A stretch of 64,000 nt of DNA, from the IMG/VR virus record IMGVR_UViG_3300003086_000115. One strand, written 5' to 3'. A model generated the notes under the pieces. That model was not told the origin of the DNA. It searched no databases and worked only from the letters and a program-made list of their open reading frames with translations. The DNA is from a virus (lineage: Duplodnaviria > Caudoviricetes). This document shows, one piece after another, positions 2,778 to 62,728 of the stretch (positions are counted from its first letter, which is position 1; each line of letters begins with the position of its first letter). The translations under genes were made by a program, and so were the position numbers.

Positions 2778-4067
2778 ATGCAAGAAAACACATCTAAAAA
2801 GCTATTTGATATATTAATAAGTAAAGGATTTGACCCTAAGACTCTTAACTCAGAGGGCAAATCGATTATTAATATAGACAAAGCAAGCATCTTTAGTTTT
2901 GATTACCAGCCAAACAAAGACAACTATGGTACAGTTGTTATACTGTTAGATGATGAAGAGAACTTCGACATCTTTTACGGTGATAACATTGGTAAGAGTA
3001 TGGATAGAGATTCCAAAAATGATTGGTATGAGCTATTAACACAGTTACGTTACTTTGCAAAGCGCAACTTATTGAGTTTCTCGTTAAAGAATATCAACAG
3101 ATTAAAGTACTCAATGCAAGGTATGGCCGCTATTAAAGAAGGGCTATACGAAGGATGGAATGGTACTAGCAAAACAAGTTATAACCCGCAGAGAAAAAAC
3201 ACACGTATTATTGCTAGACATAGTAAGAGAATAGGTGAAGGTGATCAACGTTTCCGTAACATTAAATCATTATTCATTGAGAATGCAGACGGTGAGCGAT
3301 TTAAGTTACCGTTTGTTAATATAGGCGGTGCTAGAGCAATGGCACGACATGTATCAGAAGGTGGCAACCCATACGATGTATTCGGACAGCACATTACAGA
3401 AACAGTTAAAGATATAGGCGCATTAGGTAGATTTATGCGTGTTAGATCACTAAACGAAAGTGAAGAAACTAGTAATTTAGTAGAAAATTGCAAAACACAT
3501 TATAAAAAACTACGTGAAAACTTAAAGACAATAGGTAAAGTACGAGGTTATAACAAATACAAAGAGTCATGGTCTCCAGCAGATATAAATGAAGATGATG
3601 CAGTAATTGAGAATATACGCAGTCTGTTACTTCCTGAAGGATCAGATGCAAGAGTAGACGAGGCAATACCTGCTTTAACTAGAGTGTTAGCAGGTAACAT
3701 AACAATACAAGAAGACAATCCATCAATTGGAGATAGCGATAATATGAAAGAGTTAAGAGCGTTTGAAAACTGGGCACAGAATATTAGTGAAGGTACGTGG
3801 GCTATTCCAGATGGTGAAGATGCAGTAAAAGAGTTAAGAATAATGTTAGCGAATGCGTTGCCTGTTGGTGTAGATGCGCTTAATGCTACAGAAGCTTTGT
3901 ATAATGTTATTGGTGACGATAACCTATTTGATAACTTAGATGAATTAGCACAAACAGACCCACAAGCAGATGCTCGACCTCTAATCATAGATTGGCTTAA
4001 AGAGTTTGCTTATAGTTATAATGGTATGGACAACATATTACAAGATCTAGAAATTGATGTCAACTAA
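2778..4067 (+). CDS. Hypothetical phage protein, probable head-associated protein
   Basis: Long ORF after terminase with several (I/L)xE sites (IKE, LYE, LNE, INE, ISE). Confidence 0.5.
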   Translation: MQENTSKKLFDILISKGFDPKTLNSEGKSIINIDKASIFSFDYQPNKDNYGTVVILLDDEENFDIFYGDNIGKSMDRDSKNDWYELLTQLRYFAKRNLLSFSLKNINRLKYSMQGMAAIKEGLYEGWNGTSKTSYNPQRKNTRIIARHSKRIGEGDQRFRNIKSLFIENADGERFKLPFVNIGGARAMARHVSEGGNPYDVFGQHITETVKDIGALGRFMRVRSLNESEETSNLVENCKTHYKKLRENLKTIGKVRGYNKYKESWSPADINEDDAVIENIRSLLLPEGSDARVDEAIPALTRVLAGNITIQEDNPSIGDSDNMKELRAFENWAQNISEGTWAIPDGEDAVKELRIMLANALPVGVDALNATEALYNVIGDDNLFDNLDELAQTDPQADARPLIIDWLKEFAYSYNGMDNILQDLEIDVN

Positions 4068-4473
4068 ACTAACAGAAGACGATATAAAGATAATACTAGA
4101 AGGTGCTGTTCTTGATAAATTAAGAAAGCCCGAAACATTATCGTGGACTAAAGAATTGAGCAAACGAGTATTACCACAAAAGATGTTTGACTATTTTAGT
4201 CAAAAATTACACGATGGGCAGTACAAAATGGCAATGAAAATCTATGCTGAGCTAATGCGTGCAAATAGACTTGCTCCGCCGCGTTTCTCTGAACATCCTA
4301 AAGATAGACTGCCAATGACACATAGACAGCGTGTTTATACTGCGGCAAGAATTGCAGGCGTGCAACCTAGAGAGTTCTCTAACGTGTTTAATCAAATAAT
4401 AGACGACTATCAAGAACAGTTCGCAGATGATGCTGAACTAAACAAAATCAAAGGTTTAGCCGGAACAGAATAA
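4054..4473 (+). CDS. Hypothetical protein with C-terminal ELNKIKGLAG motif
   Basis: Coupled ORF; motif shared with 30505 and 32226 proteins. Confidence 0.5.
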   Translation: MMSTKLTEDDIKIILEGAVLDKLRKPETLSWTKELSKRVLPQKMFDYFSQKLHDGQYKMAMKIYAELMRANRLAPPRFSEHPKDRLPMTHRQRVYTAARIAGVQPREFSNVFNQIIDDYQEQFADDAELNKIKGLAGTE

Positions 4474-19269: not shown

Positions 19270-19378
19270 GAAGAGATACGCTATAAAAATTTTAAATGCT
19301 ATGCGACTTAATAAAGTAGCGAGTAAGAGCTTTAAAGAGTTTGAAAATGCATTAAGGGGAATAGAGAGTGCGAATTGA
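19270..19378 (+). pseudogene. 3' relic of a paralogue/allele of the 18212 gene
   Basis: Reads IRYKNF/(frameshift)/NAMRLNKVASKSFKEFENALRGIESAN*, versus VRYKNFENAHRLNRLADTGFKKFEEIIKRIETS* directly upstream. Confidence 0.7.
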
Positions 19379-19952
19379 TGCTGATATTGATATTGACTTT
19401 CCAGATAGAGAAGCAATACTTAAATTAATAAAACATACGCCAGCAAGGCAAGAGTCTAATGTAGAATCTAAACAGCATAATAGTGGTGTTTACGTCACGG
19501 ATATACCGTATGATCCTGTGCATAAATGTGCAAATATAGACTATAAAGAAGCAGAAAACCGTAGTTACTTTAAGATAGACTTCTTAAATGTATCGGTGTA
19601 TACTTACATTAGAGATCAAGCGCATTATAATAAGTTGCTAGAAAAAGAACCAAATTGGAGCAAGTTGCAAAGTAAAGAGTTTTGCGAGCAACTAATACAC
19701 ATTAGCGATCATTACAGCTTGGTACAGAAAATGAAGCCAGATAGTATTACTAGGATGGCTATGTTCTTAGCTATTATAAGACCAGCTAAACGATATTTAA
19801 TAGGCAAAGACTGGAAAGATATTGCTAAGGAAGTTTGGATCAAGCCTAACGATGATTCTTATTACTTTAAACAAGCACACGCTATCTCGTACTCAACATT
19901 AGTAGCGTTACACATGAATATTATTGATCAGGATTTCTTACAAGAGTTATAG
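19368..19952 (+). CDS. Miniature DNA polymerase III alpha (DnaE)-like protein
   Basis: ADIDIDF (PDxDxD), HNSGVY, FKIDFLN, IIRP, FKQAHAISY. Confidence 0.75.
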   Translation: MRIDADIDIDFPDREAILKLIKHTPARQESNVESKQHNSGVYVTDIPYDPVHKCANIDYKEAENRSYFKIDFLNVSVYTYIRDQAHYNKLLEKEPNWSKLQSKEFCEQLIHISDHYSLVQKMKPDSITRMAMFLAIIRPAKRYLIGKDWKDIAKEVWIKPNDDSYYFKQAHAISYSTLVALHMNIIDQDFLQEL

Positions 19953-21849: not shown

Positions 21850-22124
21850 TGAAGAATGATACAAGTTTAAAATTTGATGAGGTTACTGAAGAGAATACGC
21901 AAGCATTTAAAGACAAATTTGCTACTGATGTCGAACATACTAGTGAATGTATAACTGAAACAGTAGAAGCTATGGGAGAGTTAATAGCAAAAGTATGTAA
22001 AAGTCAACAATCAGATTTACAGAGCGTATTAGCTTCGATAACTATAGAAACATTTGATGAACATCTTAGAGAAATATTAGCAGGGAAGAAATGCAATTGC
22101 AGGAAAACGAAACACCTGAATTAA
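21849..22124 (+). CDS. Hypothetical protein
   Basis: Coupled ORF. Confidence 0.5.
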   Translation: MKNDTSLKFDEVTEENTQAFKDKFATDVEHTSECITETVEAMGELIAKVCKSQQSDLQSVLASITIETFDEHLREILAGKKCNCRKTKHLN

Positions 22125-22819
22125 AGAATTTAGTATCGTTTGGTTGCAGTTGGGCGTTCGGTGATGAACTATTAGATCCAGACTTAGAAAAGAAAAATAT
22201 TCCTAGTCATTACACACAGAATGACGAATATCGATTAAGTCGTTGCTACACAGGAATACTTGCTAAACAGTATAACCTAACTCAAGAAAATCTAGCATTC
22301 CCTGGCTCAAGTTTACAGTCGATGCAGTGGAATCTTATGTGGTGGTTAGATAATCATAATGAAGAATACATTAAAGACTCTATTTTGCTAGTAGGACTAA
22401 CAGATGAAAGTAGGATTAGCTGGTATGACCCTAACCATGACGTTGGCAGAGATGACCCTGATTGGAATAGATACTTGCATGCACAATGGTTAGATTGTGC
22501 AGGACCTAACGTACCCGATGGATGGCATAAGCTACACAAGTACCATACAGCAATGTCTGCTTGTAACGAATTAGATAAATTACGCTATAAAACAACAGTT
22601 AGAATGTTTGATGGCGTATCAGCAAGTTACAATATACCTGTAGTGCAGTTTAATTTACTAGCTAGAACATTTATAAAATGTAATACCTTGCATAACTTGC
22701 AGATTCGTGATGTACTTAATGAAGAGAACCAGTATTTTCCAGTTTTTAAACCAGGCGGACACCCAAATGAACTCGGACATGTAATAATTGCAGAAACACT
22801 TGATGAGTATTTAGAATGA
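22091..22819 (+). CDS. SGNH/GDSL-like hydrolase or acyltransferase
   Basis: FGCSWAFG block I, NLAFPGSS block II, GHPNELGH block V. Confidence 0.7.
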   Translation: MQLQENETPELKNLVSFGCSWAFGDELLDPDLEKKNIPSHYTQNDEYRLSRCYTGILAKQYNLTQENLAFPGSSLQSMQWNLMWWLDNHNEEYIKDSILLVGLTDESRISWYDPNHDVGRDDPDWNRYLHAQWLDCAGPNVPDGWHKLHKYHTAMSACNELDKLRYKTTVRMFDGVSASYNIPVVQFNLLARTFIKCNTLHNLQIRDVLNEENQYFPVFKPGGHPNELGHVIIAETLDEYLE

Positions 22820-22827
22820 AGTATAAT
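22800..22827 (+). promoter_or_regulatory. Possible sigma70 promoter for the non-coding element
   Basis: TTGATG-16nt-TATAAT. Confidence 0.45.
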
Positions 22828-22828
22828 A

Positions 22829-23190
22829 GTTGATATGCAGTTAGTTGTTACCGACTAATGTTAGGTGTTGGTTGTCGCTTACATGCATGATATCAACCCT
22901 AAAGTGACGGTCCTTTATTACTTTAGAGTTATTCGGTAATACTGAAACGTATTATGTTAACGGATAGCGATACGTAGCTTTGCGTATTTCCAAAATTAAA
23001 GTAGTGTCTAAGACTTCTAGTCTAATTGACTATGCTTAGAAAAGGTGGCGAGGTATTCCGTAACATAACGCCATGCACAAAAGTATTATGTTAGCGCAGG
23101 GTTTTTTAGTAATAGTTTTGTTTATACCCTCATAACTTGCTAGTCCGACAGGTGTGCGATTCGGACTTTTCATTCTAACCTAGCATTATT
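22829..23190 (+). ncRNA. Candidate large structured non-coding RNA / leader upstream of primase
   Basis: ORF-free ~390 nt with at least 8 helices, many with G-U pairs on the + strand. Confidence 0.55.
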
Positions 23191-23209
23191 TTTACTATAT
23201 AATAATATA

Positions 23210-24178
23210 ATGCTAGATATCGTATCCTACTTACCCCCAAAAAGAAAAAAAACAAGCAGTGGCTGGATAAGTTTCAATGCGATTTGCTGTACATACAACG
23301 GCGAGTCACGAGATAAACGCGGTCGCGGTGGGGTAATGCTAGATAGCACAACTGATTGGCATTATCATTGTTTTAATTGCGGATACAAAGCAGGTTTTAC
23401 ATTAGGTCGTCCTGTGACACTCAAAGCAAGATGCTTGTTAGGTTGGTTGGGTGTAAGTAGTATTGATATAGACTGGCTTAATTTAGAAAGTTTAAGACAC
23501 AAGAGCATTACAGATATATTAGATGACAGAACTGTCCAGCGTAAGAAGATAGAGTTTAAGGAAATAGCATTACCTGAAGAGGCACGCGCAATAACACAGC
23601 ATGATAAAAAGTTTGTTAGTTATTTAAAAGGAAGAGGATTAAAGTACGACGAGTACCCGTTTATGATTACTCCTAGAGGCAAAGCACGTTACAAGAATAG
23701 GATAATCATACCATACACAAACGATAATAAGATAGTAGGATATACATCGCGTTTCTTAGATGACAGATTACCTAAGTACTTAAACGAGCAACAACCTGGT
23801 TACGTGTTTGGATTAGATTTGCAGAAAGAGAATTGGCAGTATGCTATAGTTACAGAAGGAATACTTGATGCGATAAGTATCAATGGATTAGCAGTCCTGC
23901 ATAATGAAATTAGCAACGATCAAGCACAGCAGTTAAAACAACTGTACAGAGAGATTATAGTCGTGCCAGATCAAGATAAAGCGGGACTAAAGCTAGTAGA
24001 AAAGGCTATTGAGCACGGGTTTAATGTAAGTATACCAAAGTGGGATGATAAGGTTAAAGATGTAAACGATGCTGTACAGAAACATGGTAAAATAGCTACA
24101 ATGCTGTCTATAGTTAATAATAAACAAAGCGGATTTAAGGCAGAAGTACTAACGAAATTTAACAACAAGTTTAAGTGA
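23210..24178 (+). CDS. DNA primase (T4 gp61-like)
   Basis: Zn-binding CC...YHCFNCG, RIIIP, TOPRIM VTEGILDA, PDQD, KDVND. Confidence 0.9.
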   Translation: MLDIVSYLPPKRKKTSSGWISFNAICCTYNGESRDKRGRGGVMLDSTTDWHYHCFNCGYKAGFTLGRPVTLKARCLLGWLGVSSIDIDWLNLESLRHKSITDILDDRTVQRKKIEFKEIALPEEARAITQHDKKFVSYLKGRGLKYDEYPFMITPRGKARYKNRIIIPYTNDNKIVGYTSRFLDDRLPKYLNEQQPGYVFGLDLQKENWQYAIVTEGILDAISINGLAVLHNEISNDQAQQLKQLYREIIVVPDQDKAGLKLVEKAIEHGFNVSIPKWDDKVKDVNDAVQKHGKIATMLSIVNNKQSGFKAEVLTKFNNKFK

Positions 24179-24200: not shown

Positions 24201-25583
24201 GTGAAAGAATACGGTAAGGATATACAAAAGTTTTTCTTAGAGATGATGCTTGGCGATGCTGAGAGTTATATTCGGGTACAAAATATTTACAATGTTGAGA
24301 ACTTCCATGCTGATTTACAAGAAATTGCAGAGTTCATAAAGACACACTCAGATAACCACGGTACGTTACCGACCTATGAACAAGTTACAGCCACTACAGG
24401 TCTTAAAGTAGAACCTGTATCAGAATTAACTGCCGGGCATTATGATTGGTTTTTAACAGAGTTTGAAGGATTTACACGTAGACAAGAATTAGAACGTGCA
24501 ATACTACAAAGTGCAGATTTATTAGAGAAAGGTGAGTATGATCCTGTAGAAAAAATTATTAAAGATGCAGTACAGATTAGCCTAACTAAAGACATGGGCA
24601 CTGATTACTTTGCAGATCCTAGAGCTAGACTCTTAGCAATTAAAGAAAACAACGGACAAGTTAGTACAGGATGGCCGATGCTTGATAAGAAGTTGTACGG
24701 TGGGTTTAATAAAGGCGAGTTACAGATATTTGCAGGTGGATCTGGCTCCGGTAAGTCGTTGTTTATGCAGAATTTAATAGTTAATTGGGTAGAGCAAGGA
24801 CTTAATGGAGTGTTTATAACACTAGAATTAAGTGAGAATTTATGTAGTTGGCGTATAGATTCTATGATGACAGACACAGCAACTAAGCAAGTATTCAGAG
24901 ACTTAGATAACGTTGAGATGAAAGTTAAGATGCTAGGAAAGAAGTACGGTAAGCTACGTATTAAGTACATGCCAGCACAGAGTACAGTTAATGACATTAG
25001 ATCTTACGTTAAAGAACTAGAGATACAACATGGCATAAAGATGGACTGTATGTGTATTGATTATTTAGACTTATTAATGCCAGTTGGTACTAAGGTTAGT
25101 CCTGAGAATTTGTTTGTTAAAGACAAGTACGTATCAGAAGAGATAAGAAATCTAGCAAAAGAGCTAGACATTATTATGGTAACAGCATCGCAGTTAAACA
25201 GGTCAGCAGTAGAAGAAATAGAGTTTGATCATAGTCATATTTCGGGTGGTATTTCTAAAATTAATACAGCAGATAATGTATTCGGTATTTTTACAAGCAG
25301 AGCAATGCGTGAAAGAGGAAAGTATCAAATACAGTTAATGAAAACACGTTCTAGTTCGGGTGTAGGACAAAAAGTAGAACTAGAGTTTGACATGAATACT
25401 CTAAGAATTACAGACGAGGGTGCAGAACTTGAAGATACACCGACATCAAGTGAGATAATGTCAAAAATTAAAATAGGAGCTCCGAGTATACCTCCAGAGA
25501 ATACACCAAAAGTAAAAGCAAATACATCAAATACGCAAAGTGCTAAATTGCAGAGCATGTTGAATAGCATTAAATCTAAATAA
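24201..25583 (+). CDS. Replicative helicase (T4 gp41/DnaB-like)
   Basis: STGWPMLD, GGSGSGKS, ITLE, IDYLDL, TASQLNR, MKTR. Confidence 0.92.
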   Translation: MKEYGKDIQKFFLEMMLGDAESYIRVQNIYNVENFHADLQEIAEFIKTHSDNHGTLPTYEQVTATTGLKVEPVSELTAGHYDWFLTEFEGFTRRQELERAILQSADLLEKGEYDPVEKIIKDAVQISLTKDMGTDYFADPRARLLAIKENNGQVSTGWPMLDKKLYGGFNKGELQIFAGGSGSGKSLFMQNLIVNWVEQGLNGVFITLELSENLCSWRIDSMMTDTATKQVFRDLDNVEMKVKMLGKKYGKLRIKYMPAQSTVNDIRSYVKELEIQHGIKMDCMCIDYLDLLMPVGTKVSPENLFVKDKYVSEEIRNLAKELDIIMVTASQLNRSAVEEIEFDHSHISGGISKINTADNVFGIFTSRAMRERGKYQIQLMKTRSSSGVGQKVELEFDMNTLRITDEGAELEDTPTSSEIMSKIKIGAPSIPPENTPKVKANTSNTQSAKLQSMLNSIKSK

Positions 25584-62472: not shown

Positions 62473-62549
62473 GCCCCTTTAGCTCAGTTGGTTAGAGCAC
62501 CCCGCTCATAACGGGTAGGCCCACAGTTCAAGTCTGTGAAGGGGCACCA
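62473..62549 (+). tRNA. tRNA-CAT, probably Ile2 (lysidine type) rather than Met
   Basis: Cloverleaf, anticodon CAT, C4-G69, C5-G68, C29-G41, A73, encoded CCA. Confidence 0.85.
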
Positions 62550-62554
62550 GTAAC

Positions 62555-62630
62555 GCCGAAGTAGCACAGTTGGTAGTGCAACTGATTTGTAATCAGTAGG
62601 TCGCCAGTTCGAGTCCGGCCTTCGGCACCA
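62555..62630 (+). tRNA. tRNA-Thr(TGT)
   Basis: Cloverleaf, ACTGA-TT TGT AA-TCAGT, TTCGAGT, CCA. Confidence 0.93.
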
Positions 62631-62636
62631 AATTAA

Positions 62637-62728
62637 GGAAGATTGACAGAGCGGCTTATCGTGCTCCCCTGCTAAGGGAGTGTAGTTCTTAAAGACTACC
62701 ATTGGTTCAAATCCAATATCTTCCGCCA
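62637..62728 (+). tRNA. tRNA-Ser(GCT)
   Basis: Long variable arm, CTCCC-CT GCT AA-GGGAG, G73, CCA. Confidence 0.93.

Follow-up and report, generated by a model that had tools for sequence, protein, structure and literature searches.

The window, by which we mean the whole 64,000-nt stretch of viral DNA analysed, comes from a large phage that has nearly all of its genes in the window on the plus strand, with a G+C content of about 36%, and encodes a large terminase, UvsX, a UvsW-like helicase, a ribonucleotide reductase and PhoH. Between an upstream ORF of 242 aa (22091-22819) and the plus-strand gene of a DnaG-type primase (23210-24178), itself followed by the gene of a DnaB-type helicase (24201-25583), lies a gap of 390 nt (22820-23209) that is non-coding, as a sequence-only reading of this DNA had proposed. 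The upstream ORF gave no match in Pfam or PHROG, and is called SGNH-like here on account of SGNH/GDSL-like blocks that were seen by eye only (FGCSWAFG near the N-terminus and GGHPNELGH near the C-terminus); its C-terminus is about six residues shorter than in phages without the RNA element described below. The nearest cultured primases, found in jumbo phages such as Phosso, Atu_ph07 and PA5oct, show 28-37% identity, and the region when used as a DNA query gave no match among 50,697 cultured phage records. Completeness ratings of 29% and 36% for two sister contigs, 103 and 132 kb long respectively, suggest genomes of about 350 kb in this group. The source is an uncultured marine jumbo myovirus clade. 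Elsewhere in the window, a 194-aa ORF (19368-19952) gave a full-length match to PHROG 11778, 'DNA polymerase' (E 8e-61), being very short for a polymerase.

Homologous gaps were gathered by a pattern scan with the conserved core of the element together with protein-guided scans, and were found in contigs of IMG/VR and JGI. This gave 13 distinct sequences (the window, L001, L084, L086, L164, L165, L166, L167, L170, L171, L172, L173 and L176), two of which are partial, and then L184, which was added later. All of the homologues sit between the same SGNH-like gene and a DnaG-type primase, with the primases of the carriers being 61-91% identical to that of the window. Among related loci from IMG/VR and JGI metagenomes, more than 50 have an upstream-ORF homologue that either runs into the start of the primase or stops 20-50 nt short of it, and the large gap, of 347-448 nt or, in L170, 1081 nt, occurs only in a subset of loci. 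In the primase tree, the 13 carriers and two nested non-carriers (L187 and L189) make up a clade with 100/99 support, in keeping with a single gain and, probably, a single loss. The element arose once, and has been inherited vertically since that single insertion.

In the two nested non-carriers (positions 1380-1520 of each locus), 20-30 nt, with a TATAAT among them, separate the upstream stop codon from the primase ATG, and both the RNA and its promoter are missing. These phages are natural deletion controls, and the RNA is dispensable. As the sigma70-type promoter is absent together with the element, promoter and RNA evidently move together as a cassette. The features found agree with a 'moron'-type autonomous phage cassette, here one with an RNA gene, in that it has its own promoter and was inserted between two genes that adjoin each other in relatives; no terminator was detected. 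No second copy of the core was detected with the covariance model R1 in the window, in sister-clade loci or in the two sister contigs, and when 185,579 prokaryote genomes were scanned for a pattern, the first of two scans was without hits and the second had 12. Those 12 were chance matches, because they scored 15-23 bits as compared with 72-93 bits for the core in all of the homologues. In one carrier, L170, RNA element and primase are separated by an additional paralogue of the SGNH-like gene (3143-4259, minus strand of the locus), which has a duplicated start region, TATATAATATTATCA-ATG; the core of this locus is the best-scoring one despite the extra gene before the primase.

The promoter of the element, TTGATG-16-TATAAT on the plus strand (22800-22827), overlaps the stop codon of the upstream 242-aa ORF. 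It had been pointed out from the sequence before, and this assignment was upheld: it has 10 of 12 matches, is the best sigma70-like site in the region, and its position is kept, with TTGACA or TTGATG followed at a spacing of 16 or 17 by TATAAT, TATATT or TATACT in 8 of 12 homologues. The RNA is predicted to start near 22834. At this predicted 5' end, an ATG seven bases past the -10 box opens a mini-ORF of 7 codons (MQLVVTD, 22835-22858), which has 20 codons in L001 and is not conserved in the remaining homologues. No ORF common to the gaps of the homologues was found, and one peptide alone recurs, which is the minus-strand reading of the conserved core and has flanking frames that are not retained. 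A minus-strand ORF of 45 aa (23036-23173) was rejected as a gene, its 'LALCY' being the RNA core, found C-terminally in some homologues and N-terminally in others.

The first part of the RNA is a variable 5' domain (22829-22966, plus strand), which is 51-166 nt long with one to four hairpins in the homologues. In the window it consists of a closing helix around inner hairpins, a hairpin at 22899-22926 and the P0 hairpin (22937-22954) that adjoins the core. The domain is not alignable across subclades, with a hairpin nonetheless located directly 5' of the first core helix, Pa, in every homologue. Two hairpins noted earlier, CTAAAG/CTTTAG and TAATAC/GTATTA, retain their pairing by double changes in L001, the sole alignable relative, and the GTTGATAT/ATATCAAC and AGACT/AGTCT arms, also proposed from the sequence, are located in lineage-variable portions.

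The conserved core covers about 200 nt of the plus strand (22970-23166). It starts with the Pa hairpin (22970-22974/22983-22987), all five pairs of which covary, and the loop of which (22977-22981) pairs with 22998-23002 to form a first pseudoknot, PK1; four of its five pairs covary, and in the alignment count it was 98% paired with double changes in three pairs. A three-way junction follows, closed by Px (23004-23007/23075-23078), with one pair being U-A in six and C-G in five sequences. Within the junction are the variable hairpin Pb (23008-23012/23035-23039; double changes in six of seven pairs) and the helix Pc (23045-23050/23069-23074; two pairs with double changes), with Pc carrying a mini-hairpin, Pd (23052-23059; one pair with a double change). 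A second pseudoknot, PK2, joins AACATAA of the Pc loop (23062-23068) to TTATGTT (23086-23092) over seven pairs that are 100% paired; this pairing is present in every homologue and includes a swap from U-A to C-G at one pair. The linker at 23075-23085 is A-rich and nearly invariant, and the segment 23045-23097 almost invariant as a whole. Beyond it are the Pe hairpin, AGGGT/ACCCT (23098-23102/23126-23130), changing from A-U to G-C at two positions and having a U-rich loop of 4-35 nt across homologues, and a third pseudoknot, PK3, formed by the interleaved strands a (23135-23139/23149-23153; 5/5 pairs covary, 95.5% paired) and b (23143-23148/23161-23166; 4/5 pairs covary), with a conserved loop GTGYRCG.

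This fold retains much of the one first proposed, namely the helices ATACG/CGTAT (Pa), GTGGCG/CGCCAT (Pc), AGGGT/ACCCT (Pe) and GTCCGA/TCGGAC (PK3b), each of which shows compensatory changes across 11-13 homologues. The GTGGCG/CGCCAT helix had been described as crossing a long-range helix; it is real, and lies within a true pseudoknot. The long-range helix itself (22952-22964/23057-23068) had to be given up: L001 lacks its 5' arm, its 3' arm AACATAA belongs to PK2, and it had used an upstream duplicate of TTATGTT (22952-22958), whereas it is the downstream copy (23086-23092) that all homologues keep. The three pseudoknots and the three-way junction had been missed. Two further pairings of our own were also discarded, these being a closing long-range helix between a 5' motif YTTGGTT and a tail motif AACCTA, the complementarity of which was inconsistent across homologues, and a supposed complementarity between the PK3 loop and 16S rRNA, which is retained neither in the window nor in L001.

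An unsupervised MAFFT alignment of the conserved part of about 200 nt, when analysed with RNAalifold, recovered PK1, Px, Pb, Pc and PK3a, thereby predicting PK1 and PK3a independently of our assignments. Counting seven helices in the alignment, PK2 included, gave 36 pairs that were 96.2% paired, as compared with 24-43% with slid partners; 17 of the 36 pairs showed double changes, a number reached in none of 500 shuffles, and the covariation score was 0.374 as compared with 0.186 in shuffles. In a 69-column core alignment 97.5% of cells were paired, with a score again reached in 0 of 500 shuffles. These alignments held about 13 distinct sequences from about eight lineages, with some 35 more primase relatives (58-73% identity; ENA, Logan) standing outside them. 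MAFFT misaligned Pa, Pe, PK3b and part of PK1 and PK3a, and the five helices Pa, PK1, Pe, PK3a and PK3b were hand-registered and then counted by script. In this count 97.8% of 274 cells were paired (30-59% in slid controls) and 20 of 24 pairs had double changes, figures that are to be taken as an upper bound because hand registration favours pairing; the registers are pinned by conserved flanks. The later found L184 fits every helix by eye, with new pair types in Pa and Px.

The strand under selection could also be read from the pairs. The hand-registered helices contained 11 G-U cells and no A-C cell, and in the alignment count pair 123-151 was G-U in 10 of 11 sequences, in line with the plus-strand preference that had been suggested from G-U pairs alone. 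This asymmetry shows that selection is on a plus-strand RNA; duplex DNA or a transcript of the minus strand is ruled out as its target. Folding energies were less telling, with minimum free energies not better than those of shuffled sequences (z -1.33 for the plus strand of the whole gap and -1.23 for the core) and a likewise unremarkable z of -1.92 for the minus strand. An energy of this kind had been named beforehand as speaking against the element, together with a lack of covariation and a match to a known Rfam family; of the three, only the energy result was obtained. Taken by themselves, z values of only -1.2 to -1.9 would suit an AT-rich spacer without function, having hairpins by chance, but such a spacer is contradicted by the covariation statistics as well as by a 68-nt core that has 84% mean column identity beside flanking proteins with 57-73% identity, and we give it hardly any credence. 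The gap contains a real, evolutionarily maintained, plus-strand structured non-coding RNA.

This RNA matches no catalogued RNA family, the riboswitches, ribozymes, group I and II introns, RNase P and 6S RNA of Rfam 15 included. Searched with Rfam 15 at the gathering threshold, the window gave three tRNAs only; the gap region at E up to 10 gave one 15-bit chance match to a miRNA, and seven homologous loci at E up to 5 gave nothing within the element. ARAGORN found three tRNAs only in the window, at 62.4-62.7 kb, and neither tmRNA nor tRNA in the gap. The cluster of tRNA genes (62473-62728) comprises Met-CAT, Thr-TGT and Ser-GCT. The statement of the sequence-only reading that no tmRNA, RNase P or group I motif could be recognised was thereby borne out by Rfam 15 and ARAGORN, as was its proposal of a novel large non-coding RNA, considering the conserved promoter, the plus-strand covariation in 9-10 helices, the lack of a conserved ORF and the lack of Rfam, tmRNA or tRNA matches. 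tmRNA (SsrA) is about 350 nt long, has serial H-type pseudoknots (PK2-PK4) separated by hairpins and is occasionally encoded by phages. The element is alike in size, in its serial pseudoknots with hairpins between them and in its location in a phage; identity with tmRNA was rejected, there being no tRNA-like domain, acceptor stem or CCA, no conserved tag frame, and negative results with ARAGORN and Rfam. With GOLLD, ROOL and HEARO/OMEGA RNA the element has in common that it is borne by a phage, conserved with covariation and found by comparative metagenomics, but it gave no Rfam 15 match and is smaller than GOLLD and ROOL.

Being an insertion with a promoter of its own, and having a pseudoknot-rich and nearly invariant core that resembles the cores of ribozymes in style, the element could also be what remains of a mobile or catalytic RNA (a self-cleaving ribozyme, something intron-like or the RNA component of an RNA-guided system since lost), retained to process the transcript at this junction. 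Past the core lies a short sequence, TTTAACCTA, that looks like the 3' end of the upstream gene as found in L189, which hints at an insertion there. More precisely, the final codons of the L189 gene, TTTTTAACCTAA, resemble CATTTAACCTA, the motif found just past PK3 in carriers, and this likeness may be a trace left by the element inserting into the 3' end of that gene. We nevertheless hold such an origin in a mobile or catalytic RNA to be very improbable, considering that no Rfam ribozyme or intron matched at E up to 10, that there is one copy per genome at a single insertion site, and that no protein gene travels along.

The region between the core and the primase bears on how the two are related. 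A primase -10 box, TATAAT (23198-23203, plus strand), ends 6 nt before the ATG at 23210, and there is no Shine-Dalgarno sequence at this start, which together suggest that the primase mRNA is probably leaderless. The sequence ATATAATA, ending 5-7 nt 5' of the primase ATG, is invariant in all homologues and is also found in L187 and L189. An inverted repeat surrounds the -10 box and covers the AUG (23180-23189/23207-23216, plus strand), so that the AUG would be buried in a read-through RNA and not in an mRNA made from the proximal promoter; inverted repeats of different spelling occur in most homologues, and near-palindromes also in element-less phages. The distance from core to ATG is 44-96 nt among the homologues. 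Within it, the RNA has an unstructured, C-rich and G-poor tail with the conserved motif AACCTA (23167-23197, plus strand). Of 12 homologues, 11 have more C than G in this tail (6 versus 1 in the window), whereas G exceeds C in the genome, and the tail may serve as a Rho-utilisation site and as the 3' terminus of the RNA. No intrinsic terminator was found between RNA and primase. The PK3b hairpin was rejected for that role, having a conserved loop of 12-14 nt and being followed by a U-run in about half of the homologues.

As no intrinsic terminator was found, read-through into the primase is possible, which makes it viable to view the element as a cis-acting leader, i.e. as the long 5' UTR of a primase-helicase operon, the core of which would sense a protein or metabolite and gate transcription or translation into the primase, for example by an alternative pairing over the start codon. 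The location immediately 5' of the primase, fixed in all 13 carriers, agrees with such a leader, and so does the near invariance of the core, which is like that of riboswitch aptamers. In the window, moreover, the segment 23178-23189 can pair either with the start region at 23207-23216 (-12.8 kcal/mol) or with 22855-22866 (-14.2 kcal/mol), the latter being a look-alike of the primase start region (CTAATGTTAGGT) inside the 5' domain that could be a switch, or else a relic duplication of an ancestral stop/start junction, TAATG. L001 has an analogous three-partner arrangement. In the other homologues, however, the three-way complementarity is not found at conserved positions and no conserved expression platform was found. 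Among the marks of a riboswitch, the invariant junction and pseudoknot core are seen; there is neither an intrinsic terminator nor a Shine-Dalgarno sequence that could be sequestered, and the repeat covering the AUG is not tied to the core at a conserved place.

Several findings speak against this leader more directly. L187 and L189, which lack the RNA, have the same TATAAT-N6-ATG start at the primase; element-less phages also carry the inverted repeat that surrounds the -10 box; and in L170 another gene separates RNA and primase. With no Shine-Dalgarno sequence and a -10 box set for a leaderless start, a primase mRNA with a long leader would be poorly translated. The autoregulatory pseudoknot of gene 32 in T4 and T2 is the comparison closest at hand, being likewise a pseudoknotted RNA 5' of a replication gene in T4-like phages. 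That element is one small pseudoknot in the leader, close to the regulated start, whereas the element studied here has a 200-nt multi-domain core and its own promoter, and is separated from the ATG by 44-96 nt or by a whole gene. An operator of the gene 32 type would be a leader pseudoknot adjoining the start and needed in cis, which L170, L187 and L189 contradict. We regard a cis-acting leader as possible though unlikely, and still as a serious rival, because termination before the primase is something that we infer.

The alternative offered by the sequence-only reading, a replication-origin or primer RNA, was not favoured by the results. A transcript of that type would fold, hybridise to the downstream template and be processed into a leading-strand primer. 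ColE1 RNA II and the T4 oriF-oriG transcripts are promoter-driven structured or origin-proximal RNAs that adjoin replication functions, and the element is likewise promoter-driven, structured and located beside replication genes. Its early promoter and structured RNA lead into very AT-rich, palindrome-containing DNA beside the genes of the primase and the helicase. Origins of the T4 type are redundant and restricted to particular lineages, a pattern that a single gain followed by a loss would fit. Unlike in those systems, the tail 3' of the fold is C-rich and G-poor, whereas R-loops are stabilised by the reverse composition, the element is missing from two nested relatives, and no conserved antisense regulator promoter and no inflection of the cumulative GC skew at 23 kb were found. 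Iterons or repeats were not seen either. We also know of no requirement of primer RNAs for an invariant 60-nt core with junction and pseudoknot. An origin or pre-primer RNA appears improbable to us.

What we consider the probable reading, albeit with considerable reservation, is that of an autonomous early non-coding RNA gene with its own promoter, the product of which probably acts in trans. A single insertion, in the ancestor of one clade, would have placed the cassette of promoter and RNA between the SGNH-like gene and the primase. An early promoter of host type (sigma70), located at 22800-22827, would drive a plus-strand RNA of about 300-350 nt in the window and about 270-400 nt in relatives, in which the variable 5' hairpins would lead into a core of about 200 nt made of Pa with PK1, the three-way junction locked by PK2, Pe and PK3. 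The RNA would end in the C-rich, G-poor tail by factor-dependent termination, and the primase would be expressed separately, from a leaderless mRNA started at its own TATAAT box. Independence of the primase from the RNA is seen in L187 and L189, which retain the TATAAT-N6-ATG start in its absence. Acting in trans, the RNA may serve early in infection as a compact folded ligand for a host or phage protein or for a small molecule. A more specific idea, which we hold to be doubtful, is that the invariant junction with PK2 is a sensing or catalytic centre belonging to a new class (riboswitch- or ribozyme-like), or a specific decoy for a host factor, by which an early-infection signal would be passed to the replication module.

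To our knowledge, a role has been assigned to few of the structured RNAs that phages encode, and ocean jumbo phages are almost unexplored at the RNA level. The element offers a clean case, with a single origin, a defined promoter, three pseudoknots, a core of about 60 nt as conserved as a riboswitch aptamer, and natural 'knock-outs' in L187 and L189. If the RNA binds a host or phage factor, it would be an RNA-based takeover or regulatory device beside the replication genes; even without such binding, the homologues provide a ready seed alignment for a new RNA family. A catalogue from 2023 presented more than 10,000 candidate structured RNAs from IMG/VR, in which gene 32 leaders are discussed, including 'csRNAs upstream of GP32' without an Rfam model, and the primase is unmentioned (PMC10690425). 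A full-text literature search gave no description of the element, which may be among the unnamed csRNAs of that catalogue.

Starts without a Shine-Dalgarno sequence were also seen at other genes of the window, namely those beginning at 137, 1153, 16594, 20314, 32874, 35341, 39446, 41927 and 42510, which have instead a T4-late-like TATAAATA or a full TTGACA-17-TATAAT located 5-8 nt before the ATG, and other genes in the window have clear AGGAG-type sites. With such promoter motifs abutting many ATGs, leaderless mRNAs seem to be common in this phage.
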